A DNA stretch of 64,000 nucleotides from Candidatus Poribacteria bacterium (GTDB lineage Bacteria; Poribacteria; WGA-4E; PCPOR2b): NCBI GenBank assembly GCA_965218095.1, contig OZ244587.1:833599-897598 (forward strand). The letters run 5' to 3'. A program made the position numbers and the translations under genes. Position 1 is the stretch's first letter. The number at the start of each line of letters is the position of its first letter. Under the pieces are notes generated by a model that worked only from the letters and a program-made list of their open reading frames with translations, ran no database searches and was not told where the DNA came from. Positions 1-52,323 of this stretch are shown piece after piece.

Positions 1-3000
1 TCGGGGCCATAACGTCGGGTCAGCTCGCTGCCTAAAATTGTACCGACAACCCGATTTGTATTCTTAATCGGTAAAGTCCCCGTAACTTTTGTCCCATCCC
101 GTAAAGCAGGCTCACAAAGATCTAAAAGGACTTCGTTATCCATAGCCTTTTCCAAACCGTGGTCTTGATCAATTTGGCGATAGCGACCAATTTCCGGTCC
201 AACTTGAGGCTGGTAGAGAACCGGCGAAAGATCGATTCCTTTTGCTTTCCAGTGGTCAACTGCCTTTTTCGGCTCAAGTAAGTCGGTGCAACCCACAAGT
301 TCGTTGACCGTGCGAACCCCCAACTGCGCCATGATTTCACGCATGTCCTGTGCAATGAAACGCATGAAATTCACTACGTGGGAAGGGGCTCCCATGAATT
401 TCTTGCGCAGTTCTGGGTTTTGAGTCGCTACACCCACCGGGCAGGTATCCAGATGGCACACACGCATCATAATGCAGCCGAGCGTCACCAGCGCCGTAGT
501 CGCAAAACCGAATTCTTCGGCACCCAACAGCGCAGCAATAACAACATCTCGACCGGTTTTAAGTTGACCATCCGTTTCCACGATAATACGAGAACGCAGA
601 TTATTCAACACTAAGGTCTGATGCGTTTCCGCCACCCCAAGCTCCCAAGGCAAGCCAGCGTGTTTAATGCTGGTCTGCGGCGAAGCCCCGGTGCCGCCAT
701 CAAGCCCGCTGATCAGCACGACATCCGCGTGTCCTTTTGCCACGCCAGCGGCGATGGTACCAACGCCGACTTCGGATACCAGTTTGACGTTAATCCGCGC
801 ATGGTGATTCGAGTTTTTCAGATCATGGATGAGTTGGGCGAGGTCTTCAATCGAATAGATGTCGTGGTGCGGCGGCGGCGAAATGAGCTCAACCCCCGGC
901 GTCGAGTGACGCACCGTGGCGATCCACGGGTAGACTTTTCGTCCGGGCAACTCACCGCCTTCACCGGGCTTGGCGCCTTGCGCCATTTTAATCTGAAGTT
1001 CCTTCGCATTCACTAGGTAGTTGCTGGTTACGCCGAATCTACCGGAGGCGACCTGTTTAATCGCGCTGTTTTTAGAGTCGCCGTTGGGTTCGAGAAAATA
1101 CCGCGCCGGATCTTCTCCTCCTTCACCGGTATTACTCTTTCCACCTATACGATTCATCGCGATCGCCAGTGCTTCGTGTGCCTCCTTGCTGATGGAGCCG
1201 TAAGACATGGCACCGCTCTTGAAACGCTTGCAGATTTCTTCAACGGGTTCTACCTCGTCGATCGGAATCGGTTCATCAGGGAACTTCAATTCTAGGAGTC
1301 CGCGTAGGGTCGCCATATTCCGAGAATAGTTATTGATTAACTCCGCGTAGTCTTTATAGACCTCATAGTTATTGGCACGGGCGGCCAATTGCAACTTATG
1401 AATCGTGGCCGGATTGAACAGATGATATTCGCCATCCTGTCGCCACTGAAAATGCCCACCGACGTCCAAAGTACGATTATCAACCGGAATTTCCGGGAAG
1501 GCTGCGTGATAACGCATCAGGGCTTCGCGAGCAATAATCTCAAGTCCAATCCCTTCCACGCGAGTATCCGTCCAGGTAAAATAACGGTCAACAACCTCTT
1601 GCTTGATGCCGATAGCTTCAAAGATCTGCGCCCCTCGATACGACTTGATGGTTGAAATTCCCATCTTCGCCATGACCTTGACCACACCTTTGGTCACTGA
1701 TTTGATGTATCCCTTGACGGCGTCTTGATACCCAATATCCGTCAGTTGCCCTTCGGCGAGCATGTCCGCTAGGCTTTCAAATGCCATGTAAGGATTAACC
1801 GCTTGGACACCATACCCGATCAGCAGACAGAAGTGATGAACTTCCCGAGGTTCACCCGATTCAAGTGCGATACCGACTTTCGCGCGCGTGCCACCCCGAA
1901 TCAGATGGTGGTGGAGGCCTGCGACAGCCAGCAGCGCGGGAATAGGTGCGGCCCCTTTGTCAACGCCGCGGTCAGACAAGATGAGAATGGTAAAGCCCTC
2001 TTCGATCGCGCGATCGGCGGCCTCAAAGAGCCCATCCATCGCTGTTTCAAGTCCGCCCTCTCCATCAGCGACGTTAAATAGGATTGGAAGGGTAGTGGAT
2101 TTGAACCCCGGTTGATCGACCTGACGCAACTGCTCTAACTCCTCGTCTGAAATAATTGGAGTATCGAGGCGAATCTGACGACAATTCTCCGGCTCCGGCA
2201 CGAGCAGGTTCCGCTCGGGGCCAATTGTTGTTTCAGATGAAGTGATGATTTCTTCCTTGAGCGGATCCAGCGGCGGATTGGTCACTTGCGCGAATAGCTG
2301 TTTGAAATAGTTGTAAAGTAGCTGCGGTCGGTTAGAGAGTACCGCCAAAGAGGCATCATTCCCCATCGAGCCAACAGGGTCACGACCGATTTTCGACATC
2401 GGGCCAAGGAAAATGCGCTGATCTTCAAATGTATACCCGAAAGTCTGTTGGCGTTGTAAAATTTTGTCGTGGTCTGTTTCGGGGGCCTTCGGTTCAACCG
2501 CCGGCAGGTCTTTCAATGAAATTAGGTGCTCATCTAGCCACTGGCGATACAGATGCTCAGAAGCAATTTTAGCCTTCGCTTCTTCATCGCTGATGATGCG
2601 TCCCTCGCTCGTATCAATCAGAAGAATCCGACCCGGTTGGAGACGCCCCTTGTAGGCAACCCGCTCGGGGGGTATGTCCAGCACCCCGGTTTCCGAAGCC
2701 AGCACGAGCAGGTCATCTTTCGTGATGTAATAACGGGAGGGGCGGAAACCGTTACGGTCTAGAGAAGCACCAACAACCGTACCATCGGTAAAAGCGATGG
2801 AGGCAGGACCATCCCAAGGCTCCATTAAACAACTATGATATTCATAAAATGCGCGTTTCTCAGCACTCATGCTCTCGTGGTTTTCCCACGGTTCCGGAAT
2901 CATCATCATCACCGAGTGGGGCAGCGACCTGCCAGAGAGTGCAAGAAATTCCAGACAGTTATCGAAAATAGCGGTATCGCTGCCATCCTCGTCAAGGATG

Positions 3001-3872
3001 GGGAAAAGTTTCGGTAAGTCATCACCAAACAACTCAGATGCCAGCATCGCCTGCCGCGTTTTCATCCAGTTCTGGTTCCCGCGCACGGTATTGATTTCAC
3101 CGTTATGAATCATATATCGGTACGGATGCGACCGTGCCCAACTCGGGAAAGTGTTCGTCGAAAATCGGGAATGAATCAGGACAATCGCCGCTTCCATCCG
3201 AGGGGCTTTCAGATCGGGGTAGAATTCGGGGACCTGCATCGGCGTGAGCATCCCCTTATAGACGATAGTTCGGCTAGATAGGCTCGGAATGTAGAAATCT
3301 TTATCCATCCCGCCGTATCGGATGATATTGGAGGCGCGCTTCCGAATCACATACAACTTGCGCTCAAAGGCGAGGTCATTTTGGATATTGGGGCTTCTGC
3401 CGATAAAGATCTGCCATACAAGAGGCTCGGAAGAGCGGGAAATCGGTCCTAAATAGAAATTATCAGTAGGGACTTTCCGCCAACCTAAAACCGTTTGTTC
3501 TTCTTCAGTAACAATTTCTTCAAGCTTCCGCTGACAGCGGTGACGTAGTTCACGGTCCTCGGCATCGGTGAAAAACACCATACCAACGCCATAGTGCTTT
3601 GGATTGGGTAGATCAATTCCCACGCTTTCGCAGGCGTGCTGTAGGAATTTGTGCGGGACTTGCATGAGAACGCCCGCTCCGTCGCCGGTGTTTTCTTCGG
3701 CACCGCGGGCCCCCCGATGGTCAAGACAAGTCAGCGCATCTAGTGCCTGACGCACGAGCACATTGGATTTTTCACCTTTGATGTTGACGATAAAACCAAT
3801 CCCACAAGCATCATGTTCGTAAGCGGGATTATAAAGTCCTTGCTTCTGCGGAATACCTATCTTTCCTTTCAT
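1..3872 (-). CDS. gltB: Glutamate synthase (GOGAT) large subunit, partial; C-terminus lies beyond the window start
   Basis: Reverse-complement translation from the ATG at 3872-3870 gives [27 protein letters not shown] (N-terminal amidotransferase domain), then the FMN-binding core ([27 protein letters not shown]) and the GXGXG domain. Absent from the ORF track because it runs off the edge. Confidence 0.92.
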
Positions 3873-4258
3873 ATCAGCCTCTCTTGTTCAACTTCGTTCC
3901 GAAAAACCTGTATCTATTTGCGACTTCTGCTGCGGTCTGTGTTATCTTATCTGTGACTTCCTTTCCGCCCTGATAGAAATCTGACCATACTTCCTCGAAT
4001 CAATGACAAACGCTTTGCCAGAAGGGATCGGCAGACACGAGGAATGTCCACCCAATAGTCCGAAACCTAACGATTACTTGCTGAAACAGTTAGGTAAGAT
4101 GAAGGTTCAGGAAGGAAAATCATTTCGTGGGGATCTGTTACGCTCGCTTCGAGAACACTGCATTCGATAAAAAATTGTGGCGAATAGACTTGTAATAATA
4201 CATCACATAAATTGCCCATGTCAAGAAAATTTCCTTGTCATCTATCCAAACGATTTTG

Positions 4259-27053: not shown

Positions 27054-27959
27054 TTACTCCCATGATATGCTTTCCATAGTTATGGATAAATCATGTTCTG
27101 TAGGCATAGTATAAATTGCCGTTGTATTCACACTTGAATGTCCTAATATTTTCGCAACTCTATCAATTGGTTGTCCAGCATCAATTAAATTCTTGGCGCA
27201 GGTATGCCTAAACACGTGTGGAGACAGATGCTTTATCTTGGCTATATAGGCATGTTTCTGAATGATATAGCGCACCCCACGATCTGTCAACGGCATCCGT
27301 TTTTGTCCGTAAAACAGAAACCGTTCCCGCTCTGGATTTGCACCTGTTATCAATGTGGCTTGTTTATCTTCAAGCGACTCCAAGTAATCCTTTAGGATGC
27401 GCACCGCAGTTGAGTTTAACGGGATATTCCGCTGTTTAGTCCCTTTGCCTTCACGAACAGTAATCATATTACTATTTTCAGACAAAGTAACATCAGAAAC
27501 TCTTAAATTACAAAGCTCACTAACGCGCACGCCTGTATGGAGCAGCATTGTGATAATCGCCAGATCCCTGATATTCCCTGATTTACGCACGGCCCTGAGC
27601 AATGCGAGTTGCTCCTTACGCGCCAACGACCGCGGACCAAGCGGTTCCTCAGTGACAGCGCGTATGCCGTCAACAGGGTTATTCGGAATGAGATCGTTCT
27701 GTTGCGCCCATTGACAAAAACTAGAAATACTCATTAGACTGCGATTAATTGTTGACGGCTTTTTGCCCCAATCAAGCATTGCATTTCGATAGTCGATTAC
27801 GTCCATCGGTGTAATGCTTTCTGGGTGCAGCGGTTCCCCGGTCGCGAGCTGAAACCAATGTGAAAATGAGCGGAGATCCGCCATGTAAGCTTTAATGGTT
27901 TGCTCGGATTTATCTTGATCATGCAGAGAATCGCGATAATCTTGTGATAGATTGTCCAT
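27054..27959 (-). CDS. Tyrosine site-specific recombinase/integrase (XerC/XerD-like, SAM-like N-terminal domain)
   Basis: 301 aa. Box motifs ...TGVRVSEL..., HVFRHTCAKNLIDAG, LGHSSVNTTAIYT (catalytic R-H-R-Y). Confidence 0.88.
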   Translation of the reverse strand: MDNLSQDYRDSLHDQDKSEQTIKAYMADLRSFSHWFQLATGEPLHPESITPMDVIDYRNAMLDWGKKPSTINRSLMSISSFCQWAQQNDLIPNNPVDGIRAVTEEPLGPRSLARKEQLALLRAVRKSGNIRDLAIITMLLHTGVRVSELCNLRVSDVTLSENSNMITVREGKGTKQRNIPLNSTAVRILKDYLESLEDKQATLITGANPERERFLFYGQKRMPLTDRGVRYIIQKHAYIAKIKHLSPHVFRHTCAKNLIDAGQPIDRVAKILGHSSVNTTAIYTMPTEHDLSITMESISWE

Positions 27960-29882: not shown

Positions 29883-31556
29883 ATGTCTTTGACCAATACA
29901 ACTCGACAGTCCCCAACTAAGTTGGGACAAAGGGAGTCGCCTCCACCCTATAAAATCATCTTCAACTGGGACGGGACGCCTGACGGTTACTCGGAATACC
30001 CTCAATCACTGGAGCAGTTGCTAGACATTGTCTACGCACCGATAGAGGACACGCAAATCGGGGCGCTGTTCTGGTGCCTGGGCGCCGAAGAAGCCAAGTG
30101 GCCCTCCGAGACCTTGCCGGTCATCGGGGAGGCGGAGAACTGCTTCTACGGCTCCGTGAAGAATATGCGCCGTGCCGAGGGGGTGCGAGCGATGTTTGAG
30201 CGCGGTGAAGAACTGTATGCGGCAATGGTCGAGCGAGGACATCAGATGGGCATCCACGTTTACTGCTCCATTCGGATGAATGACAATCACTTCTGGTCGG
30301 AGGCCGCTAGACGGGAGCCACCCCTTAATCCCGAAGAAATGGCGAAGACAGCAAGGCCCGGGCTGACACAATTTCGCAAAGACCATCCAGAATGGTGTCT
30401 CAGTGCCGACCACGCTCCCAGATGGGCGGCCACCTCCTGGAATATGGCCATCCCGGAGGTGAGAGAATACAGGTTGCGGTACATTACCGAGGCATGCCGA
30501 CTAGCAGACTGGGATGGCGTCGAGTTGGACTGGCAGCGACACGCTTTCCACCTTCCCGAAAATGATGCCTATCGACTTCATTACACCCTTACCGATTTGC
30601 AGCGGATGGTGCGCAGGCTGACAGACCAGATTGCTGCGGAGCGCGGCAGGGCCTTCTATGTAGCGGTACGCGTCGGTGCGTCAATGGAGACATGCCGGCG
30701 GGTCGGGTATGACGTTGAGACGTGGATGCAGGAAGGGCTTTGTGACATCGTTGCGACCAACGCGAACTCCGGCACCGATCCCGGGGTGGAGATCGAAACG
30801 TTCCTCGAGCTTGCTAAAGGCGGGGAGATAAAGTTGTATCCGGGCTTCGACAGTCACTGGGAGTCCGGGAAAGGACGCTTGATTGGATCGCGGGTATGGC
30901 TGGAAGCATGGTATCGCGGTTTAGCAAAGGGCTACTTCGATCGTGGCGCCGACGGGGTACACATCTTCAACTGGCATGCCAACAGATATACACATCACTC
31001 GCTTTTGACGACGATTGGCGCGCCCGAGACGCTAAAGCAGAAGGACAAAGTCTATTCCGCTGTCAAACGTCATATTCGGGCGAGGAGCGAATTGCGCTAC
31101 GGCGCAGAGCGGGATGACCGTCTCTATGGTGAAACGCCCGTCGCACTGTACCACACACTGACTGGAGATGGACCGAAGTTCCACATTCGTGTCCACGACG
31201 ATGTTGTGGCAGAAGCGAAGGCTGGCACCTTGGAAACCATCGGACTTCAAATCGAGTTGGCCCATTTCTCGCCGGCTGACAAGGTTGAGGTCACGCTGGA
31301 TGGTTGGCGACTGGCCGCCCCATCAATCCGTAACGTTGCCGGCGATGACCCCGACAACCCTTCCGATGTGGACGAGCATAGCTGGCTGGTGTGGGAACTT
31401 TCTCCAGAACAGGTTGCTTTGAATTTCGATCTTATCGGGGCAGACTGGGGCGTGCACGAAATTCAGGTCTGTTTGGTGAAGCAGGATGCGCGTATCCGTC
31501 CCCCGCTAGTTGTGGAGAATGTGGAGATCTACGTCAACTACTATGCTGTTAAATAA
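29883..31556 (+). CDS. Hypothetical protein, possibly a glycoside-hydrolase-like TIM-barrel protein
   Basis: 557-aa intact ORF in a GC-rich block next to Gfo/Idh/MocA genes. No family recognised with confidence. Confidence 0.55.
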   Translation: MSLTNTTRQSPTKLGQRESPPPYKIIFNWDGTPDGYSEYPQSLEQLLDIVYAPIEDTQIGALFWCLGAEEAKWPSETLPVIGEAENCFYGSVKNMRRAEGVRAMFERGEELYAAMVERGHQMGIHVYCSIRMNDNHFWSEAARREPPLNPEEMAKTARPGLTQFRKDHPEWCLSADHAPRWAATSWNMAIPEVREYRLRYITEACRLADWDGVELDWQRHAFHLPENDAYRLHYTLTDLQRMVRRLTDQIAAERGRAFYVAVRVGASMETCRRVGYDVETWMQEGLCDIVATNANSGTDPGVEIETFLELAKGGEIKLYPGFDSHWESGKGRLIGSRVWLEAWYRGLAKGYFDRGADGVHIFNWHANRYTHHSLLTTIGAPETLKQKDKVYSAVKRHIRARSELRYGAERDDRLYGETPVALYHTLTGDGPKFHIRVHDDVVAEAKAGTLETIGLQIELAHFSPADKVEVTLDGWRLAAPSIRNVAGDDPDNPSDVDEHSWLVWELSPEQVALNFDLIGADWGVHEIQVCLVKQDARIRPPLVVENVEIYVNYYAVK

Positions 31557-38622: not shown

Positions 38623-39394
38623 CTAGGTTCTGTTGACATTTGAGTATAAGGTTGTGGCATATATAAGGTTGTGGCATAATAGAAGAATGATGCCAATAAC
38701 CTTACCCGATGACCAATGGAAAAAGATATACTCGTTTCTTCTAACTTGTCCCAACATCTATGTTGGCAACGAAGCGACAACACGCCGCTTTATCGAAGCT
38801 GTTCTCTGGGCGACCCGTAGCGGTGCTCAATGGAGACTTCTGCCAGACACCTATGGTAAATCGAACACCCTCTATAAGCGGTTTGCTCGGTGGTGCGACA
38901 AAGGGGTCTTCACACAGATCCACCACCACTTCGCCGCCGACCCCGATATCGAGTCGCTTATTGTGGACAGTACAATCATTCGAGCGCACCCGTGTGCGGC
39001 GGGTGCCGAAAAAAAAAGGGTGGCACTGAAAACCAAGCGTTAGGTCGCTCTCGCGGGGGATTCAGTACAAAAATTCACATCACAGTTGACGGCCTGGGTA
39101 ATCCACTAAGAATACATCTGACGCCCGGTCAAAGAAACGACATAGCAGAAGCAGAAGCGTTGATACTTGGATATAAAAGCGAGTATGTGATTGGAGACAA
39201 GGGATATGACTCCGACAATTTTATCGCGGTTATTGAGGCGAATGGAGCGATTGCGGTGATACCGCCAAAAAGTCATCGTGTGGATCAAAGAGATTACGAC
39301 AAACATCTGTACAAAGAGAGACATCGGGTTAAATGTTTCATTAACAAGATAAAATGGTATCGCCGCATCTTCTCTCGGTTCGAGAAGTTAGCTG

Positions 39395-40502
39395 AGGGGT
39401 GTGCATAAATATAGTTGACATAATCAAGCCAAAAGGGTTTCCTATTGTTATCATAGCAAAAGGAGCCCCAATATGGTACAAAGACCAATGTTGGCTGATT
39501 ATGTCACTCTTATTATGCAACTCTTTGAGCAGTTTATGCAACACCGTATTGACAAACCAGGTGTCACACACGCAAAACCATTGACATATTCAACCACCTC
39601 GTTTATCATTTTCTTCATGTTGATGCAGTTTCACGGCATCTATGGCTTCAAAACGCAATGGCGGTGGCTAATCAATCACCCAGAAGTGTTACAAATGCTG
39701 GGGTGGCAACAGCCCCCTCATCGAACCACGATTGCACGTCGCTATAAGGCATTATATGAAGTGATAGAGGCATTTGTATTGTTTATCGGTCAGTATGCCA
39801 CTGACTTGTCCCAACAATTCAACTTGGCTCATCTGGTAGCCGACAAAAGTTTATTTAAGGCACGAGGACCCGTCTGGCATCAAACTGACCGCAAAGCAGG
39901 AAAAGCACCTAAACATCTACGCAACCTCGACACCGATGCCACGTGGAGCAAGAGTGGTTATCATGGCTGGGTCTATGGCTACGGACTTCACATTATCTGC
40001 ACACAAGGTGCGTTCCCAACACTGATAACTGTGCACCGTGCGTCGGTCTCCGAAAGTTGGGCGATAGATGCTAAAGCGTCTGAGATTCTGACACAACTTT
40101 CACCGCAGACACTCACTGCCGATGATGCCTATACCCAAGCAGACCGTATCCGTCGTTGGGCGAAAGCACAAGTCGCTTTGATTACCCCGGCACTTAGATG
40201 GACAAAGGGACGGTTTGCCAAGGCGTATCATCGATTTATCAACCAACCCAAGCAGCGTCTCTGTTTAAGCAAACGTCGCAGTTCGGTTGAACCGTTGTTT
40301 GACTTGATTGCTAAAGTGATAGGCACCACTCCTCAACAGAAGCAGTTACCGGTCAAGGGGTTTTTCAATGTACGCTGTTGTTTAGCTATCGGGGTGTTAT
40401 CAGTGCAAGTGGCTATGATTGCCAATGCCATATGGAAGTTACCTGCTCGCAATATCTCTCATATGGCGGCTGTTTTCCAATGAACTACTATGCACACCCC
40501 TC
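39395..40502 (+). mobile_element. Compact IS (1108 bp) nested inside IS5 copy C
   Basis: Perfect 14-bp IRs gaggggtgtgcata / tatgcacacccctc. An 8-bp target duplication agttagct from the host IS. Encodes a single 336-aa transposase. Confidence 0.75.
39473..40483 (+). CDS. DDE transposase (IS4/IS701-like, DDE_Tnp_1 superfamily)
   Basis: DTDATWSKSGYHGWVYGYGLHI (first D region) ... TADDAYT ... RRSSVEPLFDLIAKVIG (Y-R-E-K signature). Confidence 0.75.
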   Translation: MVQRPMLADYVTLIMQLFEQFMQHRIDKPGVTHAKPLTYSTTSFIIFFMLMQFHGIYGFKTQWRWLINHPEVLQMLGWQQPPHRTTIARRYKALYEVIEAFVLFIGQYATDLSQQFNLAHLVADKSLFKARGPVWHQTDRKAGKAPKHLRNLDTDATWSKSGYHGWVYGYGLHIICTQGAFPTLITVHRASVSESWAIDAKASEILTQLSPQTLTADDAYTQADRIRRWAKAQVALITPALRWTKGRFAKAYHRFINQPKQRLCLSKRRSSVEPLFDLIAKVIGTTPQQKQLPVKGFFNVRCCLAIGVLSVQVAMIANAIWKLPARNISHMAAVFQ

Positions 40503-40583
40503 AGTTAGCTATCCGTTATTTTGGATTTCTCAGCTTTGTCTCCACTCTTATATGGCTCCCTTGAAATGTCAACAGAACCTAGT

Positions 40584-41118
40584 TTAGAGACTAAATTGAG
40601 CAATAGATAAAGGCACAAAGCCATCGTCATCAACGGGTAAGCCATCCCACTGCACCAACAGATTAAACACCGCCATCGTGAAACCGAGTCGTGTTTTGAA
40701 ATAAGCCCAACACCGATGCCCCACTTTCTTCAAATGACAGACTCGGGTCAACATTGATAAAACGGTCTCAACCCGCATCCGACCGTTCCACTCCCCACGG
40801 TGGCACAGCCGCAGGTTACAAGACACCCCATCAGCTTTGGCAAACCCTGTATCGGCAAAAACAACCATCTGCGCCTCAATCCCGATCTTATCGGGACAGG
40901 TGGAAGCGACTACCATCGTGTACATTGGCACTATCACAATCCCAGTCCACAATCAGCCCCAAATGGTTGAGTAGCAAACACAGCTTGCCGCCTACAATCC
41001 AGCGTTGATTGGATAGCCCTTTTCTACCGATTTGCTGCTGAGAGCGACCTTCTCGACGGGGGTGAATCAGTTCAATACCATAAGTGTCAATCACGCCGAT
41101 GAGTGAAGGATTTTCCAT
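40584..41118 (-). pseudogene. Remnant of a third DDE transposase type (IS4-like), frameshifted and truncated at the IS5 copy C boundary
   Basis: GVIDTYGIELIHPRREG...GRKGLSNQRWIVGGKLCLLLN...ANVHD (ORF 40888-41118) and ...RVETVLSMLTRVCHLKK... (40584-40952) lie in different frames. Confidence 0.55.
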
Positions 41119-41303
41119 GAAAATATCATCAGATGTTGATGATTGTTGAACAATCGAAACAAGCGGCTTCGCTCGGGTAAATTGGGGAACAAGGGTTTAT
41201 AATTGTTTTAACACCTTATAAGCGCAAACAGCAAGGCGATGGTAACCCCTTCAGAGGGATAGAGATTGGCTTGGCTATGCTTTTGGTTTTTGTTTTGTTG
41301 TGT

Positions 41304-41357
41304 GAGTTTATCATCTACACGACAGAACATGAGTTTATCATCTACACGACAGAACAA
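41304..41357. repeat. Tandem duplication, 2 x 27 bp
   Basis: gagtttatcatctacacgacagaaca(t/a) occurs twice in direct succession. Confidence 0.8.
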
Positions 41358-41518
41358 TTGTGTGATAAAATCTACAGTGGTCATGAGTTTGGGTTCCTCC
41401 CGTTAATCGAGTATGGTTTGTCACCCCGATTAACGATAGAATTGAGGAAACCGTCTCATGACCTCTCATTAAACTTGCACCACTGGTTATAACAATCTCA
41501 GCTTCACAAAAATTTGAT

Positions 41519-41547
41519 TTGACTACTTCATGTTTGTGTGGTATAAT
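41519..41547 (+). promoter_or_regulatory. Consensus sigma70 promoter: TTGACT, 17-nt spacer, TATAAT
   Basis: ttgactacttcatgtttgtgtggtataat lies about 55 nt upstream of the small zinc-ribbon ORF. Confidence 0.55.
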
Positions 41548-41604
41548 TTCACACATAAAAAACTTGAAATTATCTTACCGTGAACACAAAGAAAGGAAAT
41601 TCAG

Positions 41605-41781
41605 ATGAAAACTTCATCTTCGTTGAAGATTACTGACTCGATTCGTGCAATCAAAAATCAAGTGTGTGAAGAGTGTGGCACGCAAGCAAAGGGTTTTGTC
41701 TATCGCAAGGCGCACCCGATCTACTACTGCCACAAGTGCTTGCGCGATAAGATTAGCAGTAATGGACGACTGGTGGCATAG
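41605..41781 (+). CDS. Small zinc-ribbon protein (58 aa), hypothetical
   Basis: MKTSSSLKITDSIRAIKNQVCEECGTQAKGFVYRKAHPIYYCHKCLRDKISSNGRLVA. RBS AAAGGAAA 7 nt upstream. Not in the ORF track (under 60 aa). Confidence 0.45.
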   Translation: MKTSSSLKITDSIRAIKNQVCEECGTQAKGFVYRKAHPIYYCHKCLRDKISSNGRLVA

Positions 41782-41829
41782 GTGAATCGTTCAACATTAC
41801 GTTTTACGTTCTTGGTGGTTGCCCCAGTT

Positions 41830-42340
41830 CTACAAACTCATGGACGAGGTGGACGTGCGAACCGCTATGCCTGCCCAGATCTGCCGCGAGGGGCTCTGGC
41901 AGAATTCATGTTCTTTTGGCGGGTGAACAATCTTCTTCCCATTTTTATCCGCCCAGACTGCTCCGGCTAGATTGTGTTCAAAACTCCCTTCCGCCCCGTA
42001 AATCCCACTGCTCGTTCGCTGCCGGGGTATAGGGCATCGGAATGCTCCCCGTTTTATCCTGTCCTCACTGATTACCCCACCGGTTTTTCGCCACATCGTA
42101 CAGTCTGTGACTCATGTCGTGGAAATACTCTGCCTGACAGTAGACAAACTCGCCAAACGCGCCCTCCCCCGCTTTCTGACGAGAAAACGCAGTCTCAGGG
42201 CAAAAGAAATTGGTCTCGCCATTCATGTAAATCATACCTGTTCGTCTTACCGCTTCTAGCAGATCGTCACATTCGTCCAACGAATGCGCCGCGGGGACAG
42301 CAGTGTAGACATGTTTGCCTGCTCCCAACCTTTGAACATG
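41830..42340 (-). pseudogene. Internal/C-terminal fragment of a Gfo/Idh/MocA oxidoreductase, continuing the N-terminal fragment at 44740-45066
   Basis: ...AGKHVYTAVPAAHSLDECDDLLEAVRRTGMIYMNGETNFFCPE... is paralogous to ...KTYLFAENYPYFAYNQEMRRLYKAGEVGEMQYGEGEY... of the 34091-35418 gene. Two frames. Confidence 0.5.
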
Positions 42341-43150
42341 ACGGATATGCAGCCATGGTTGGGTGATAATCGCTAACCTTGAGAATTTCTGATTGACACA
42401 ATTTTCATTTACTGCTAGAATGGTGGTGCATAGCTATCAGAAAATCTACAAGGAAGTCAACATGAAAGAAACGATTGTCAAGATTCAGGTTTTATGGCTA
42501 TTTATTTTTCTGCTGTTAGGCTGCGGCGCCGCCAAACCGTACATCAATAAAAACAAACAAAGCAGCCTGTTGGTGACCTTTAACGAGAAGAGTCCCGATT
42601 CCTCAGAGATCATCACTTTCTACGCGCTGGGAGATTGGGGCACAGGGAACCGAGCACAACAAGCTGTCGCAAAGGCATTGAAAGATGATATTGAGAAGCT
42701 TGGAGACCGAGAGATTTTCCCGTTTGTCATCGGTCTGGGGGATAATGTGTACCCTCGCGGATTGCCGGATAAGCCCTGGGGCAGTCCCATAGTTTTTGAC
42801 CTTCTGAATCGTACCTTTGGGCATATTTACGAAGGTATCAAATACAAAGGGCAAGCGTTAACATTTCATATAATCCCAGGAAACCATGACTATGCAGGGG
42901 CATACAAAAAGAAAGTCGGTTGGGGGAATATATCCCATTGGGAAGCGACAGCGACATCCCGCATTTGAAGTACTATCCCATTGATCACCAACATTTTTCT
43001 GACACCAATGATGAACAGGAGTTCAACTCCTTAGAATCAAAAAGAAAAAGTGGTGAACTTTACCAGTTAACCCTTCCGGAAAAAATGTACATAGAACACT
43101 TGAATTCAGTCACCTTCATTGCCCTGGACACACAAATTCTATTAGAGTTA

Positions 43151-44074
43151 ACCCAAGTTGCTAGTAATTGAAAATCCATGGGTTTTCCGTTAAAGTAGAG
43201 GTAATCCAAACCATAATACCTCAAAGGAGAAACCCATGGACATCCAAATTGCAACCATTTTCTATCTCTGTGACAAGCTCTTAGAAGCACTCAACTCAAA
43301 ACCACACCCACAAACGCAGATGTCTGATGCCGAAGTCATGACCACCGGCATCGTCGCTGCGTTGTTCTTCGGGGCAAACTTGCAAACCACTTGTGACTTT
43401 CTAAAGACTCATGGCTATATACCCAAGATGCTTTCAAAAAGTCGATTCAACCGACGACTTCATCGAATTAAACCGATGTTCACCACATTGTTCAAAATCT
43501 TGGGACGAAGCTATGTGCAACTTAATCAACAGAAAATCTATGCACTGGATACCATACCAATTGCTGTTTGTTCCGCATTCGTCGGTCAAAAATCTACACC
43601 GATAAGGCATATCGAGGCTATCAAGCGTCCAAACGTCGGTATTTCTATGGCTTGAAAGTTCATCTGCTAGTGACTGCGAGTCGACACCCTGTTGAATTTT
43701 TTGTGACCCCAGCCAGTACAGGGGACGTTGAAGGGTTACAGTGGTTTGACTTCGACTTGCCACCGGGCTATGGTGACAAAGCATACAATAATTATGAGAT
43801 AGAAGATATTGTTACATCAGTCGGAGTCGAATTAAAGCCAGTACGCAAGAAGAATTCCAAGCGGCTGTATCCACCATGGGAGACCTACTTGGCTAATTAC
43901 CATCGTAAGTCTGTTGAGACGGCTGGCAGTTTGATTAACAAACTGCTTCCACGTTCAATCCATGCAGTAACGCAACACGGATTTGAATTGAAAGTGGTCT
44001 TGTTTGTATTGGCTAGCAGTATCAATCAGCTCTGAGTTCACTCACATATTCGATGAATAGGTCGCAACTTGGGT
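43151..44074 (+). mobile_element. IS982-family insertion sequence (924 bp)
   Basis: IRs acccaagttgc / gcaacttgggt (ACCC ends typical of IS982). An 8-bp direct repeat TAGAGTTA flanks the element. Confidence 0.8.
43236..44035 (+). CDS. IS982-family transposase; apparent frameshift at an A5 run (43588-43592)
   Basis: MSDAEVMTTGIVAALFF...LDTIPIAVCSAF | SKIYTDKAYRGYQASKRRYFYGLKVHLLV...GDKAYNN... One extra A fuses ORFs 43236-43655 and 43568-44035. Confidence 0.7.
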
Positions 44075-44739
44075 TAGAGTTATATAAAGAGCCAAAACAA
44101 AATGAGGGCATAATAAATCAACACTGGCGGAAGCTCGAAACACTGTTGAAGGGAGATAAAGCTGACTGGAAATTTATTCTCGGACATCACCCTATTAAAA
44201 CCTACGGTGCCCACAGAGACCGGTATACCAATAATAACCCGTCACTTCAGGATTTATCCCACCCGGCTTATAAAAGTTTAAGTGGCGCTTAAAGCATCTT
44301 ATGAAACGTTATAATGTCAACATGTATCTAGCAGGACACGATCATAGCTTACAATTTCTAGATTTAGGGAGAGGTTTAGGGGAGGGACCTTTTCAAATTG
44401 TTTCCGGGTCGGCAGGTAAGAAATCGTCTGTGAGACCTAATGATAAGGGAAGCACGCATTTTGCCCATGGCGTTTACGGCTTTGTGCGTTTTGATGTGAC
44501 AGAGCAAGCGATATGGATAGAATTTCTTCATGTCAATGTTAAGGAATTTACTCATAAGTCGTCTGCTGTATTTCGCATCCCCCAAATATAGAGCGTGTCG
44601 GACTGAGTTGAGCCAGAATCACACTCATTAAATACTTTATCATTCTATCTTCCTGACATTGGTTGATGCTTTCTCAAGTTTATCTTTGCGTTCTATTGCA
44701 AGTTGAGGTGAGCAACTTCAGTACCAAATTCTTTGAAAG

Positions 44740-45066
44740 GAACATCAAGTCGCTTTGTGGCAGGTGAGGAGAGCTTTCCAGTACGAATGCTGAAATGTGG
44801 TGATAGGACTGCGGTGTGCAGATGTCCGCCCCGTTCAAATCCTCTATCTTTAGCATATCTTCGACGTCGTCATAAACGTGGGGCACCCTTCCTTGAAACT
44901 CGGCGATTTTTTCCGCGGAAGCCTGTGCTGCCTCCCTATGTACATCACACATTGCTTCGATTGAAAAGGTACCCACCCCTTTTTCCACTAGCGCTTGATA
45001 TCCTCGCAGATGCGCGTTTGCGATTCCGCCGCAACCAATGATTGCTAAACGAACCTTATCTGACAC
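44740..45066 (-). pseudogene. N-terminal fragment of a Gfo/Idh/MocA oxidoreductase
   Basis: MSDKVRLAIIGCGGIANAHLRGY...ADICTPQSYHH, then diverges into the inserted sequence. The matching continuation (AGKHVYTAVP...) is at 42340, on the other side of the 2.4-kb phosphatase/IS982 block. Confidence 0.5.
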
Positions 45067-46125: not shown

Positions 46126-46464
46126 TGCGACAAATCGACAAGACGCCGCAGTTTCTCGGCATTGATTGTAAGCATTGGTATATGGAAAAGCATACCGCAC
46201 CTTCCCATCTGTCTCTTGACTGATTTGTACAGATTCAACTGTCGCTTGTTTATTCATTAGAATTCATGAACCTTTGACAGGTTGGCCTGGAATAAAATCT
46301 TGACTTTTCGAGATCTTCAGTTTACTATACCCCTGTGGTTTTGTCAATAATGTTTTCATTACGCATTACATTTTACGCGATTTGCGTTTCTCTGTACGGA
46401 CAAAAGATCTTTTGTCCCTAAATAAACAGACCCGAGACCATAAATAAACGGGGAAAGATTTCGT

Positions 46465-46752
46465 ATGACGCTTGGAAAAGTTGTGGGAACGGTCGTTGCA
46501 ACACGGAAAGATGAGAAATTAATCGGCAGTAAGTTGCTGATTGTGCAGGAGACAGATCTCAATGGAAACCCGGTCAGTAAATACACGGTTGCTGTCGATG
46601 CTGTTGGCGCAGGTGTGGGTGAACTAGTACTCACCGCATCAGGCAGTTCAGCGCGTCAAACAAGCATCACCAAAGACAAGCCTGTTGATGCGGTGATTAT
46701 GGCTATCGTTGATTCGATTGAAGTTCACAGGGAAATTCGGTTTCAGAAGTGA
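46465..46752 (+). CDS. Bacterial microcompartment vertex (pentamer) protein, EutN/PduN/CcmL family
   Basis: MTLGKVVGTVVATRKDEKLIGSKLLIV...TVAVDAVGAGVGELVLTASGSSARQT...PVDAVIMAIVDSIEV closely matches the EutN_CcmL fold (compare PduN: VAVDAVGAG.GEWVL..GSSARQ...DAAI.GIVDSI). Promoter-like TTGACT-N17-TACTAT and RBS GGGGAAAG upstream. Confidence 0.8.
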   Translation: MTLGKVVGTVVATRKDEKLIGSKLLIVQETDLNGNPVSKYTVAVDAVGAGVGELVLTASGSSARQTSITKDKPVDAVIMAIVDSIEVHREIRFQK

Positions 46753-46761
46753 GTTGAAGAC

Positions 46762-46956
46762 ATGAAGACTCACCCCCCCCAAACTGATTCTATTGAAGAA
46801 CTTACCAGATTTTGGGACACGCATGACCTGACCGATTTTGAAGACCAATTGGAGGAAGTTGCTGAACCCATCTTTGTATGCGAAGCGGAAGCCGCGATGC
46901 AGATCCACTTGCCGCCCAAAATGGTTGAGGCGGTTAAGCGGATTGCGAAGTCTTAG
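46762..46956 (+). CDS. BrnA/CopG-like antitoxin-family protein (orphan; no BrnT-like toxin adjacent)
   Basis: DSIEELTRFWDTHDLTDFEDQLEEV... is typical of BrnA antitoxins. Starts 10 nt after the EutN-like stop. Confidence 0.6.
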   Translation: MKTHPPQTDSIEELTRFWDTHDLTDFEDQLEEVAEPIFVCEAEAAMQIHLPPKMVEAVKRIAKS

Positions 46957-46967
46957 GGAAAACTCTC

Positions 46968-47255
46968 GTGGTTTATTCTATATCTATCGTCCGGTCGGAG
47001 TGCATCCACAACGCAACCGATGTTACGTCGGTTTGGATGTCAAGGATACAAAATCCTGAACTTCGCATCCGTGAGTTTACGTTTCAGCCTGATGCCCTGA
47101 TCAAACTGACTGTTCGGAATTTTGAGTCGGGCGTGACGCTCAAAATTAATGATGAAGGAGTCAGTCGTTTTCGTGAACCAGAATTACGTCACAGCAAAGT
47201 TGGTGTCTATGGATGTTCTTTACATTTGGACGGAACTCTAGTAACGGAACTCTAG
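46968..47255 (+). CDS. Hypothetical protein
   Basis: 95-aa ORF followed by a 2 x 14-bp tandem repeat (acggaactctagta, 47233-47260). No recognised domain. Confidence 0.3.
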   Translation: MVYSISIVRSECIHNATDVTSVWMSRIQNPELRIREFTFQPDALIKLTVRNFESGVTLKINDEGVSRFREPELRHSKVGVYGCSLHLDGTLVTEL

Positions 47256-47307
47256 TAATCGTTAAGTTCAATAGCCTTCATATCCATGACCTGCATTAGT
47301 TTTCCAA

Positions 47308-49050
47308 ATGCAAGCAAATTCAACAGACATACCCCTCAAAATCGAACTCATCAAGCGCATCGGTTGGCTCGTCAAGCTCCGTTGGATCGCTATCACGGGT
47401 GTCTTGCTGACCGTGAGCATTGCGAGTTGGGGACTCCATATCATTGAAAATCCGATGCCGCTCTACATCATCGCAGCGTTAATGGTGCTCTACAATTTTG
47501 AGCCGCAGATCTATCCTAAGCATATCACTGAAAAGCCCCTCGCATCGATTCAGCGGCATGCTCGCACGCATATCATTCTGGATCTGTTTTCGCTCACCGC
47601 CCTGATCCATTTTAGCGGCGGCGTCGAAAATCCGTTCATTTTCTACTTTATCTTCCACCTCGTCATAGCGAGCATTCTCCTCTCCAGAAAAGTCAGTTAC
47701 ATCCTCGCCACACTCAACACCGCCCTGTTAAGCTCTCTCATCTTCCTTGAGTATTATCACATCTTGCCTCATTACCATCTGGAACATTTCTTGCCTGAAA
47801 CGCTCTGGCGGGATGCAATCTACATTTCAAGCGTGCTGTTCGTTTTCACAAGCACGCTGTTTTTCTCCGTCTATATGGCGACATCGATTATGGATACTGC
47901 GAGAGCCCGTGAGGAGGAAACCCGCGAGTTGAAGGAAAACCTCGAAGAAAAGGTAATCGAACTGGAAAATGCGCGGAAAGCGGTACTTTTCGAGCGAAAC
48001 AAGCTCAAGTCGATCATCGAGTGCATGCAAGAAGGGGTTGTCTTTGTTGACGACAAAAACCGGGTGTCGCTCTTTAACAAGGCTGGGCAACAGATCGGAA
48101 AAGAGCAATTCGGGCTTGATACAGAAGGCATTGAATCGCCGGTGGCTTATGGCAGCCTTCCACAAATTGCAGCAGATTTATCGAACGGAGAGGCAATTAT
48201 CGAACAGCAAAGCCTGCAGATTAAGGATAAATTTTTCGAGAACACCTATGCCGCCGTGCGCGACGATAGCGGTAACTATTTAGGCACAGTTTTAGTTTGC
48301 CGCGATGTGACTGATCGGAAGCGGATGGAACAGCAGATGATCCAATCTGAGAAGATGGCGGCGATTGGTGAGTTAGCGGCAGGGGTTGCGCATGAGATCA
48401 ACAACCCCCTCGACGGTCTACTCAATTGCATCCATCGGATTAAGCGCGACCCACAGAATGAGGGGCAGACAAAAGAATACTTGAATCTCATGGAGGAAGC
48501 CCTCCGGCGGATTGAATCAACGGTCGGACAACTTCTCAATTTTTCGCGTCAACATGAGCTTGCGCTCACCTTAGTTTCGCTCAATCAGGTGGTCAATGAA
48601 GTTGTCGGCCTGATTGAATACAGCGCTGAAGAAAAGAGTGTCCGGATTGAGCAGCATTTCCAGAAAGACCTCGATCTGATCCTTGGGGACAAACATCTCT
48701 TAGAACAGGTTGTCCTGAATCTTGCGCTAAATGCGATTGGGGCTATGCCCGATGGTGGCGTGTTGACTTTCAAAACCGGGAAAATTGAATTTGATGCGCT
48801 GTTTGGTGAAGCGGCGACTTTCGTTCAAGTGACAGACACAGGGATCGGCATCCCTCAGTCCGTTCAGGATCGGATCTTTGACCCATTTTATACCACGAGG
48901 ATAACGGAGAAAGGCACAGGACTTGGGCTCTCCGTATCCAACCGAATCGTCACGCAACATGAAGGTGTCATCGAATTTGAAAGCGAGATTGAGCGCGGTT
49001 CTACCTTCACTGTTAAATTACCGATAAGGAGGGTTCTAGAGGAGGTATGA
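47308..49050 (+). CDS. Membrane sensor histidine kinase (multi-TM N-terminus, PAS, HisKA, HATPase_c)
   Basis: Five or six N-terminal TM helices; PAS-like segment; H-box AHEINNPL; N, G1 and G2 boxes (DTGIGIP, GTGLGLS). Confidence 0.85.
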   Translation: MQANSTDIPLKIELIKRIGWLVKLRWIAITGVLLTVSIASWGLHIIENPMPLYIIAALMVLYNFEPQIYPKHITEKPLASIQRHARTHIILDLFSLTALIHFSGGVENPFIFYFIFHLVIASILLSRKVSYILATLNTALLSSLIFLEYYHILPHYHLEHFLPETLWRDAIYISSVLFVFTSTLFFSVYMATSIMDTARAREEETRELKENLEEKVIELENARKAVLFERNKLKSIIECMQEGVVFVDDKNRVSLFNKAGQQIGKEQFGLDTEGIESPVAYGSLPQIAADLSNGEAIIEQQSLQIKDKFFENTYAAVRDDSGNYLGTVLVCRDVTDRKRMEQQMIQSEKMAAIGELAAGVAHEINNPLDGLLNCIHRIKRDPQNEGQTKEYLNLMEEALRRIESTVGQLLNFSRQHELALTLVSLNQVVNEVVGLIEYSAEEKSVRIEQHFQKDLDLILGDKHLLEQVVLNLALNAIGAMPDGGVLTFKTGKIEFDALFGEAATFVQVTDTGIGIPQSVQDRIFDPFYTTRITEKGTGLGLSVSNRIVTQHEGVIEFESEIERGSTFTVKLPIRRVLEEV

Positions 49051-50372
49051 AAGTACTGGTTGTTGACGATGAAAAAATCAAACTCATTACACTGCGCGAT
49101 GGTCTACGCGAGGTAGGCTACGATACAATCGCAGTTGAGTCTCCAACGCTCGGGCTACAGCTTTTGCAAAACGAACATTTTGACGTCCTTGTCACCGATC
49201 TGCGCATGCCGAAGATGCACGGCATTGACTTCCTCAAGCACGTCAAGAAGGAATATCCCCATATCACCGTGATTGTCATGACTGCTTATGCTAGTGTTGA
49301 AACCGCAGTGGAAGCAATGAAATTTGGGGCGTACAACTACATCAAAAAGCCATTTTCTAGTGAAGAACTGATCCAAATACTGGATAAACTGAAAATGCTT
49401 CGTGATAAAGATGAGCCGCGCGCAAAGTTAAAAGCTCGTATTGAGGGACGTTCTCCATACCAAAATATCGTTGGGAAAAGCCGAGCGATGCAAGAAATCC
49501 TTAACCTGCTTGAAAAGATTTCTGATGCTCATAGCACCGTATTAATCTACGGAGAGCGTGGCACGGGGAAATCGCTCGTTGCAAAATCGATCCATTTCAA
49601 CGGTTCGCGCAGACACCACCCCGTTGTTATTGTCAATTGCTTGGGGACATCTACAGAAGCGTTAGATCTGCAACTCTTTGGAGATAAGAAGGAAGAAGAT
49701 GAGTCAGCGCATAAAGGTACGCTTTTCCTCAAAGACGTGGATGAACTTCCCGCCGAACTGCAGATCAAACTTCTACGGATGTTGGAAGAGCAGCAGCTTG
49801 ATTCGGACAGAAGCGTAGAAATTGATCAAGTACAGGCACGGGTGATTGCTGCAACGACAAAAAATTTGCGTACGAAAGTCCAAAGCGGAGAATTTCGAGA
49901 CGACCTCTTCTATCGGTTGAGCGTTGTCCCAATCTTTCTACCGCCACTGCGTGAACGAGTGAAAGATATTCCGCTCTTAATCAATCACTTTTTAGATCTC
50001 TTCTCCTCGAATCACCCTATCCGCATTGACTCCGAAGCTATTGATTTGCTCACGGAATACCCATGGCCAGGCAATGTCCGCGAATTAGAAAATGTCATTG
50101 AACGGCTCGTAACGGTTGGCGGCGGCGGGGATATTACTGTCGAAGATATTCCGCTTGAATTGAAACTGCCGACCCATATCAGCTTGAATGAAACGTTGAG
50201 TGAGATTTCATTTCAAGAGATTATCCGAACCACGGAGCGAGAGCTCATTGCCTGGGCGATGAAAAGGGCGCAGGGGAATAAAAGCCGAGCTGCGAGACTA
50301 CTCAAAATGAAGCCTTCAACCTTCCGCGATGCCCTCGCCAAGCATATTGATCAGATCGAGTGGAGGAGTTAG
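49047..50372 (+). CDS. NtrC-family response regulator (REC, AAA+ sigma-54-interaction domain, Fis-type HTH) lacking the GAFTGA motif
   Basis: REC: DDEKIKL...D at 54. AAA+: GERGTGKS, ...LFGDKKEEDESAHKGTLFL... (GAFTGA replaced), FRDDLFYRL. C-terminal HTH ...NKSRAARLLKM... Overlaps the kinase gene by 4 nt. Confidence 0.85.
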   Translation: MKVLVVDDEKIKLITLRDGLREVGYDTIAVESPTLGLQLLQNEHFDVLVTDLRMPKMHGIDFLKHVKKEYPHITVIVMTAYASVETAVEAMKFGAYNYIKKPFSSEELIQILDKLKMLRDKDEPRAKLKARIEGRSPYQNIVGKSRAMQEILNLLEKISDAHSTVLIYGERGTGKSLVAKSIHFNGSRRHHPVVIVNCLGTSTEALDLQLFGDKKEEDESAHKGTLFLKDVDELPAELQIKLLRMLEEQQLDSDRSVEIDQVQARVIAATTKNLRTKVQSGEFRDDLFYRLSVVPIFLPPLRERVKDIPLLINHFLDLFSSNHPIRIDSEAIDLLTEYPWPGNVRELENVIERLVTVGGGGDITVEDIPLELKLPTHISLNETLSEISFQEIIRTTERELIAWAMKRAQGNKSRAARLLKMKPSTFRDALAKHIDQIEWRS

Positions 50373-51251: not shown

Positions 51252-51363
51252 TTTTCCGCTTGACATGGGATACGCCTGTGATATAATACCCACACCAGAT
51301 AGGTACGGAAGAGGAGGGCATGGGTGATTGTGCAGAAAGAAAACCGGAAGATCTCAGGGAGAG

Positions 51364-52323
51364 ATGAATAGAGTCCACACGCCTGTCTTAGTTGATGAAG
51401 TAGTTGGATTCTTGCAACCGAAAAGTCATAGTTTTTATGTGGATGGCACGGTTGGATTAGGTGGGCATGCCGCTGCTATTTTACAAGCCTCTGCGCCAGA
51501 CGGGCGCCTTTTGGGTATTGATTTGGATTCAGAAGCGTTGGCCATTGCCAGGGAGAGGCTGAGTGAATACAAAGGACAGTTAACCCTCGTTCAGGGAAAT
51601 TTTGTCCACTTAGATCGGCTGCTTGAAACGATGGCCCCTCAACTGAAATCGCGGGCTGAAGTTGATGGGGTTTTACTCGATTCAGGGGTTTCATCTTTGC
51701 AACTCGATACGCCGGAGAGAGGGTTCAGTTTTACCCACCTCGGTCCCTTAGATATGCGCATGAATCAAAGCCAGTCGTTGTCAGCGGCACAAGTCGTGAG
51801 CCACAGCCGAGAAGCTGAACTTGCTGATATTTTTACGCGCTTCGGTGAAGAACGCTGGGCGAAAAGAATAGCTCAGCAGATTGTTCAAGCCAGAAAGATT
51901 CAGCCTATCTCGACAACCCAACAACTTGCCGAAATTATCCGGCAGGCAATTTCCAAAAAATCGACCCGACCGCGTATCCATCCCGCGACAAAGGTTTTTC
52001 AGGCATTACGCATCTATATTAACGATGAGCTCAACAACCTGCATTCCGGTATAAATTGTGCGGTTTCCACCTTAAAGTCTGGTGGACGCATCTGCGTTAT
52101 TTCATTCCACTCTCTCGAAGATCGAATCGTTAAAGAACAGTTTCGCACCCTATCGCGCACCTGCATCTGCCCACCGGGAACACCTGTCTGTGTGTGTCAT
52201 CATACACCATCCCTTCAGATATTAACCAAACGTCCAATTACTCCGAAGCCTGACGAAATTCGACAAAATCCTCGGTCTCGAAGTGCGAAATTGCGCGTCG
52301 CTATGAAGATCCGCGAATCTTAA
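51364..52323 (+). CDS. rsmH: 16S rRNA (cytosine1402-N4)-methyltransferase
   Basis: MNRVHTPVLVDEVVGFL...DGTVGLGGHA...VISFHSLEDRIVK. An alternative TTG start at 51328 has a strong GAGGAGGG RBS. No mraZ upstream. Confidence 0.88.
   Translation: MNRVHTPVLVDEVVGFLQPKSHSFYVDGTVGLGGHAAAILQASAPDGRLLGIDLDSEALAIARERLSEYKGQLTLVQGNFVHLDRLLETMAPQLKSRAEVDGVLLDSGVSSLQLDTPERGFSFTHLGPLDMRMNQSQSLSAAQVVSHSREAELADIFTRFGEERWAKRIAQQIVQARKIQPISTTQQLAEIIRQAISKKSTRPRIHPATKVFQALRIYINDELNNLHSGINCAVSTLKSGGRICVISFHSLEDRIVKEQFRTLSRTCICPPGTPVCVCHHTPSLQILTKRPITPKPDEIRQNPRSRSAKLRVAMKIRES

Follow-up and report, generated by a model that had tools for sequence, protein, structure and literature searches.

A stand-alone gene for a microcompartment vertex protein in Poribacteria and the truncated BrnA-like ORF next to it

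A gene for a vertex protein of bacterial microcompartments (BMC) lies in poribacterial DNA immediately upstream of a short ORF resembling an antitoxin gene. Five copies of such a protein, BMC-P, form the pentamer that closes one vertex of a microcompartment shell. The question is why a vertex protein should be encoded at a place remote from the other components of the shell, and whether the antitoxin-like ORF is its partner or an accidental neighbour. The stretch of 64,000 nucleotides that contains both ORFs is referred to below as the window. The original prediction, based on the letters of this window, considered the vertex gene an orphan, and suggested that the two ORFs may form a repurposed pair of a structural protein and a regulator. 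The observation of both ORFs is confirmed, and the interpretation is partly supported.

The vertex gene (46465..46752, plus strand) starts with ATG and encodes a protein of 95 amino acids. The protein matches the EutN_CcmL profile PF03319 over its whole length (positions 1-83 of 83), with E-value 2.1e-31 and 108.7 bits, the cutoff being 25; thus the proposed family assignment was upheld by the profile search. The best solved relative is the shell BMC-P of Haliangium ochraceum (PDB 5V74, 6MZX, 6MZY), aligned end to end (residues 1-95 with residues 1-95, E-value 1.4e-29), and the structures of CcmL and EutN were matched as well. Given the match to the whole profile and the end-to-end alignment with 5V74, the product is, as far as sequence similarity can tell, unambiguously a genuine full-length BMC-P vertex protein, as had been claimed. 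On the other hand, its scores against the NCBIfam equivalogs are all under the cutoffs (CcmL, 104.3 vs. 125; EutN, 71.1 vs. 118; CsoS4A, 47 vs. 120), and therefore it is a BMC-P outside the named carboxysome or Eut types.

The homologs of the vertex protein form at least 120 clusters with 66-100% identity, and nearly all of them have 95-96 residues. The named ones come from Candidatus Poribacteria, and so do the three nearest records in the scan of the genome collection. The identical protein is also encoded on metagenome-assembled contigs of 5.3 and 6.27 Mb. Comparison of the gene with eight poribacterial orthologs yielded pN of 0.09-0.19 and pS of 0.63-0.79, the latter being saturated, and dN/dS of roughly 0.03-0.14, which points to strong purifying selection. 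The monomer structure predicted with 32 poribacterial homologs is a poor model (mean pLDDT 53.5). The protein may be expected to pentamerise and to cap a shell made of BMC-H proteins encoded elsewhere.

No BMC-H genes were found in the 64-kb window by tblastn with PduA, CcmK2, EutM and CsoS1A (best E-value 0.067). No BMC enzymes were seen by Pfam among the genes examined, that is, among the 30 larger ORFs upstream of the two ORFs and the downstream genes covered by the precomputed tables of the near-identical loci L001 and L002. The upstream ORFs represent only housekeeping, transporter and transposase genes, with matches to PdxJ, MnmE, YidC, TopA, ABC ATPases, GFO_IDH_MocA oxidoreductases, a tyrosine recombinase, and several DDE transposase genes or their fragments. 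This agrees with the claim that the window holds no other BMC genes: any shell gene must be 17 kb or more away from the vertex gene on the downstream side and 46 kb or more on the upstream side.

The position of the two ORFs at the edge of an IS-rich island was also described correctly. The IS-rich stretch spans positions 38890-45066 upstream of the vertex gene. Transposase genes and fragments occupy 38890-44035, including an intact gene of a 336-aa DDE transposase (39473-40483) and DDE_Tnp_1 fragments (38890-39408 and 43236-44035). They are followed by a GFO_IDH_MocA gene (44680-45066) cut to 128 aa, whereas full-length poribacterial versions have 341-352 aa. In the poribacterial loci L007 and L009 the region upstream of the vertex gene contains a divergent FAD/DAO oxidase gene; the window has the transposase fragments and the truncated GFO_IDH_MocA gene instead.

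Loci of this type have been described in Poribacteria. Kamke et al. 2014 (PMC3909097) reported four poribacterial regions with BMC shell genes; each single-cell genome had one or two pfam00936 genes and up to three pfam03319 genes, situated at separate loci, SAG 4E having two and three, respectively. Group A of that study is a BMC-H gene beside PduL, and group B is a tandem BMC-P pair beside another NtrC/kinase pair. Group C (PMC3909097, Text S1 and Table S4) consists of a pfam03319 gene and the gene of 5-formyl-THF cyclo-ligase. They are direct neighbours in SAG 3G; in SAG 4E, a PAS_10/HisKA/HATPase_c kinase and an NtrC-family regulator are interposed, MraW comes after, and transposases are nearby. 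The window has the same gene order as SAG 4E, with the kinase and NtrC pair between the pfam03319 gene and the cyclo-ligase gene, and with the cyclo-ligase and MraW/RsmH genes downstream. The window differs in having an extra segment of ~0.5-0.55 kb before the kinase gene, formed by brnA and PEGA-like fragments, which is unlisted in the published description of 4E (PMC3909097). That BMC shell genes are present elsewhere in the genome is true of both single-cell genomes, SAG 3G and SAG 4E (PMC3909097), and such genes are the kind of finding named in advance as going against an orphan.

In the same year, Axen et al. 2014 characterised every poribacterial locus as "satellite-like". In the later catalogue of Sutter et al. 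2021 (PMC8217296), FRAG types are BMCs with shell genes in up to six genomic places. The type FRAG2 comprises 33 loci, 21 of them from Poribacteria, and is characterised by a BMC-P triplet, which is scattered, together with two BMC-H genes (PMC8217296, supplement). According to the same supplement, FRAG loci lie far from enzyme genes, encapsulation peptides were not found, and the entries include a poribacterial BMC-P of 95 aa labelled 'FRAG2 (sat)', green clade. The window resembles FRAG2 (PMC8217296) in the poribacterial host, the position of the shell gene away from BMC-H, the scarcity of enzymes nearby and the 95-aa BMC-P, and no difference of substance was noticed; BMC-H is absent both from the 64-kb window and from the 10-kb neighbourhoods of the vertex gene in 18 poribacterial loci. 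From its length, phylum and similarity, the BMC-P of the window probably belongs to the FRAG2 satellite clade.

Thus the reading of the vertex gene as a true orphan is not supported, as the gene retains a conserved poribacterial position upstream of the cyclo-ligase gene, published as group C (PMC3909097), and shell genes of FRAG2 are scattered by rule (PMC8217296). A lone vertex gene is the normal condition in Poribacteria, and the oddity of this phylum is the scattering of shell genes rather than this gene. The locus type has been known since 2014 from poribacterial single-cell genomes and has been catalogued as FRAG2 since 2021, and hence it carries little discovery weight.

The genes downstream in the window are all on the plus strand. 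The sensor histidine kinase gene (47308..49050) has the domains 6TM_PilS, PAS_10, HisKA and HATPase_c, as given by the precomputed Pfam data for the identical protein of L002. The gene of the NtrC-type sigma-54-dependent response regulator (49047..50372) has a start overlapping the stop of the kinase gene by 4 nt, so that a two-component system does lie beside the two ORFs, as was noted originally. The gene of 5-formyltetrahydrofolate cyclo-ligase (PF01812, 50520..51251) has an uncertain start codon, the candidates being 50520, 50574 and 50626. RsmH/MraW (51328..52323) starts the dcw cell-division and cell-wall cluster, which anchors the locus, and is followed by FtsL, FtsI and MurE. No terminator-like sites were found on the plus strand of the scanned region among the vertex, kinase, NtrC regulator and cyclo-ligase genes, and hence these four genes are likely to be co-transcribed.

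The gene order was compared in 18 poribacterial loci representing nine lineages, including the window. The cyclo-ligase gene is downstream of the vertex gene in eight lineages out of nine. It follows directly in L007/8, L009/10, L016, L017 and L018 (69-73% identity), with a 15-nt gap in L007 and a 4-nt overlap in L009. Three lineages, L011 (83%), L014/15 (73%) and the window itself, have the order vertex gene, kinase, NtrC regulator, cyclo-ligase. The vertex gene is separated from the called kinase gene by 64 nt in L011 and by 43 nt in L014, and the BrnA-like ORF is absent there. In L012/13 (77% identity) the vertex gene stands alone. Comparison of the lineages demonstrates that the vertex gene is conserved, under selection, full-length and situated at a conserved position. 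Judging from gene order, its conserved downstream partner is the cyclo-ligase gene, not the antitoxin-like ORF. The operon link between the vertex and cyclo-ligase genes was remarked on by Kamke et al. too (PMC3909097).

Outside Poribacteria, 77 loci with BMC-P relatives at 48-67% identity were considered. A BMC-H gene is located on the same strand at most 500 nt upstream in 63 of these 77 loci, whereas in the 18 poribacterial loci, covering nine lineages, there is none within 10 kb of the vertex gene. Therefore the gene in the window would be the H-adjacent member of a BMC-P triplet, separated from its shell neighbours in the poribacterial ancestor. Most of the 77 loci also have a tandem pair of further BMC-P genes 0-4 kb downstream, and the link of the vertex gene with cyclo-ligase was seen in none of them. 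The Myxococcales locus L025 has the order BMC-T, BMC-H, BMC-P, aldehyde dehydrogenase (AldDH). The likeness of the window protein to the H. ochraceum BMC-P (PDB 5V74, 6MZX, 6MZY), which has related Myxococcales loci with this order, covers all 95 residues. However, in loci of the H. ochraceum type the BMC-P gene directly follows BMC-H in the main locus, whereas the window gene is far from any shell gene.

Several further observations concern these relatives. Loci L020, L026, L029, L035, L040, L044 and many more have a BMC-H gene, a BMC-P gene, a gap of ~2-3.5 kb, and then two tandem BMC-P paralogs with 30-48% identity. In L025 the corresponding gap of the triplet is filled by the aldehyde dehydrogenase gene. 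The gene order of the non-poribacterial relatives agrees with the published 'BMC-P triplet' pattern. Eight non-poribacterial loci (L032, L043, L056, L061, L063, L067, L073 and L074) have no BMC-H near the BMC-P gene. Their hosts are Rhodothermales, Bacteroidota, Cytophagia, a KSB1-like MAG and unclassified bacteria. They are probably other fragmented loci of the FRAG type, because all but L073 have a second BMC-P gene directly downstream.

The best explanation, to which we assign a probability of about 0.85, is that the window contains a functional stand-alone poribacterial BMC-P gene at its ancestral place, the rest of the shell being encoded elsewhere, and that the BrnA-like ORF is debris and not a partner. 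The gene would encode a functional BMC-P subunit of a FRAG2-type microcompartment shell, and would be the single member of the BMC-P triplet, the one similar to 5V74 of H. ochraceum. The tandem BMC-P pair and one or more BMC-H genes, one of them beside PduL, would reside at other loci, as the literature on poribacterial genomes suggests. The vertex gene would still occupy its ancestral position in Poribacteria, as the first gene of a short operon that precedes the dcw cluster; the next gene there is cyclo-ligase or, in the sub-lineage of the window, the PilS-like kinase and the NtrC-type regulator with cyclo-ligase after them. In the species of the window only, an IS-associated rearrangement may have left ~0.5 kb of mosaic debris downstream of the vertex gene, ahead of the kinase gene. 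In this debris a 5' portion of a brnA antitoxin gene would be fused to a 3' portion of a gene with PEGA domains, and any translation of the brnA fragment would be an accident of its position 9 nt past the stop codon of the vertex gene.

Another possibility is that the vertex homolog works outside a microcompartment, in folate metabolism, cell division or the two-component system, and has been kept through the cyclo-ligase operon. This would fit the operon link observed in eight of the nine lineages and the overlap of the two genes by 4 nt in L009. Expression data point in the same direction: in a metatranscriptome table, the vertex ortholog of SAG 3G and the adjacent cyclo-ligase gene have practically equal transcript levels, 300 and 307 FPKM respectively, the level of the BMC-H gene being 1047 (Jahn 2016, supplement). 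Further, FRAG loci are remote from enzymes, and encapsulation peptides were not found (PMC8217296, supplement). There are no reports of polyhedral bodies in Poribacteria, and BMC-H was localised near the cell membrane (Jahn 2016); these two facts also weigh against the preferred explanation, in which a canonical shell would be formed. However, the protein has a typical BMC-P sequence, which is closest to the pentamer of a real shell, and its relatives in other phyla belong to canonical BMC-T/H/P/AldDH loci. Moreover, BMC-H, PduL and two further BMC-P genes have been retained in Poribacteria (PMC3909097, PMC8217296), and synteny with a housekeeping gene can be a historical accident. On balance, a role outside the shell seems improbable.

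We have a similarly low expectation of two related proposals, namely, that the operon of the vertex and cyclo-ligase genes is functional rather than historical, or that the shell proteins assemble into a non-canonical structure associated with the membrane and not into a closed polyhedron. The functional link is proposed because the two genes overlap or nearly overlap in several lineages and have equal transcript levels in hospite. If it were true, the FRAG2 vertex protein would be co-regulated with, or would act on, folate and one-carbon metabolism or the adjacent cell-division cluster. The phylum-wide operon link of a vertex-protein gene with 5-formyl-THF cyclo-ligase is the sole curiosity that the locus retains under the preferred reading, that of a functional stand-alone BMC-P gene.

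The ORF downstream of the vertex gene (46762..46956, plus strand, ATG start, 64 aa) corresponds to a BrnA/CopG-type antitoxin gene without its 3' third, and probably represents the remnant of a pseudogene. It was originally placed 10 nt after the vertex gene; the ORF is indeed at this place, but the spacer (GTTGAAGAC) has 9 nt. The score of its product against PF12441 (CopG_antitoxin) is 27.9 bits with the cutoff of 28, and the match covers profile positions 4-62 of 79. The homology is clear from identities of 63-78%, along the whole ORF, with PF12441 proteins of 83-109 aa. In the alignment, it retains the acidic N-terminal FWDTHDLTDFEDQLEEV motif and the beta-strand of the ribbon-helix-helix (RHH) domain. 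However, all 119 other homologs listed for it have 83-109 aa. The ORF stops after ...AVKRIAKS, whereas the aligned homologs go on for ~21 residues, KGV....LIREWVLEKL, which form RHH helix 2. Thus of the complete fold (strand, helix 1, helix 2) the second helix is missing, and no remnant of it was found in any frame of the DNA past the stop codon. The PDB search with the 64-aa product yielded only chance matches to coiled coils.

The claim that the antitoxin-like ORF has no toxin next to it held as well, since neither the ORF list nor the Pfam tables contain a BrnT-like match within the window. The window ORF is thus similar to the antitoxin of the BrnTA type II module (BrnA being PF12441) at the level of 63-78% identity, but differs from it in being cut before RHH helix 2 and in having a BMC-P gene at the place of the toxin gene. 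In locus L097, a CopG_antitoxin homolog of full length is immediately preceded by a BrnT-like ORF, which is the usual arrangement of a toxin-antitoxin module. This latter ORF (positions 2585-2899 of L097, BrnT-like sequence FIWPKERIDHTARHDVHPEEVEEA) is uncalled, which suggests that gene tables miss small toxin genes.

The BrnA-like ORF is confined to L001-L006, which are near-identical strains of the species of the window, and none of the other poribacterial lineages examined has it. It is intact and identical in the six strain contigs. As these contigs are ~99% identical overall, this identity neither supports nor excludes selection. The DNA that follows resembles a different gene. For residues 25-93 of the mechanically called ORF 46968..47255, the aligned regions are positions 157-225 in a protein of 234 aa and the repeats in a protein of 2317 aa, which has 19 PEGA domains. 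The ORF contains a fragment of a PEGA-like beta-sandwich domain (47037..47246, plus strand), apparently derived from the 3' portion of a longer gene. The frame of this small ORF is shifted by a tandem duplication of 14 bp (ACGGAACTCTAGTA, two copies, 47230..47257, plus strand). In the strain alignment the duplication is polymorphic, with two copies in the window, L002 and L006, and one copy in L001, L004 and L005. The intergenic DNA of L011 and L014 is too diverged for the alignment to inform on the boundaries of the insertion.

These data bear on the suggestion that the vertex protein and the RHH-like protein are a repurposed, translationally coupled pair of a structural protein and a regulator. 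Such coupling would agree with the 9-nt gap, in which there are no terminator-like sites, with the intact state and identity of the 64-aa ORF in six contigs, and with the conservation of the acidic motif and the beta-strand. However, the arrangement is seen in one of the nine poribacterial lineages. About 21 residues at the C-terminus, RHH helix 2 among them, are missing from the ORF although all 119 other listed homologs have them, and the score of the ORF falls under the Pfam gathering threshold. The next 300 bp are a fragment of another gene with a frame-breaking polymorphism, and the full-length homolog in L097 stands behind a BrnT-like ORF in the ordinary toxin-antitoxin arrangement. The suggestion is thus largely refuted by comparative data, and we regard it as very improbable. 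The antitoxin-like ORF, as the alignments demonstrate, is truncated and lineage-specific. It is probably pseudogene debris at the edge of the IS-rich island, and the supposed meaningful pairing with the vertex gene did not survive, as the ORF is missing from the other poribacterial lineages, shortened at its C-terminus, and joined to an unrelated gene fragment. A note of caution is that a lone vertex-protein gene is normal for Poribacteria, and that a tidy pair of genes can consist of a functional gene and pseudogene debris.

It is hardly credible that the vertex gene is decaying after the loss of the microcompartment to which it belonged: it does have an isolated position next to an IS-rich region, where several genes are truncated, and a possible loss of function at BMC loci with transposases was raised by Kamke et al. 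(PMC3909097), but the ORF is intact and full-length, its ortholog is transcribed in hospite (SAG 3G, Jahn 2016), and this reading already appears contradicted by the selection data, that is, by dN/dS of ~0.03-0.14 across lineages with saturated synonymous sites.

The vertex gene had also been credited with its own promoter-like element. A sigma-70-like match, TTGACT-17-TACTAT, is indeed present upstream of the gene (46300..46328, plus strand) and agrees with the consensus at 9 positions of 12. However, the frequency of such matches in the region is not above chance, as two were found against 2.8 expected from shuffles, and hence this site is weak evidence of a promoter. Candidate sigma-54 sites (TGGCAC-N5-TTGCW with at most two mismatches) also occur at about the expected number, 38 vs. 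34.5, and none of them is in the intergenic region upstream of the vertex gene. No RNA family of Rfam scored at threshold within the window, and thus 6S RNA was not detected beside the cyclo-ligase gene.

Two other parts of the window deserve mention. The gene of the tyrosine recombinase (27054-27959, minus strand), with the Phage_integrase and N-terminal SAM-like domains, adjoins a stretch of low GC content, 43% at 26-28 kb, and the next ORF after it (29883-31556), encoding 557 aa, has no Pfam match. At the left end, positions 3-3887 of the minus strand form 1295 stop-free codons running off the window. The N-terminal sequence of this stretch looks like the large subunit of glutamate synthase, and its presence explains the apparent shortage of ORFs in the first 4 kb.
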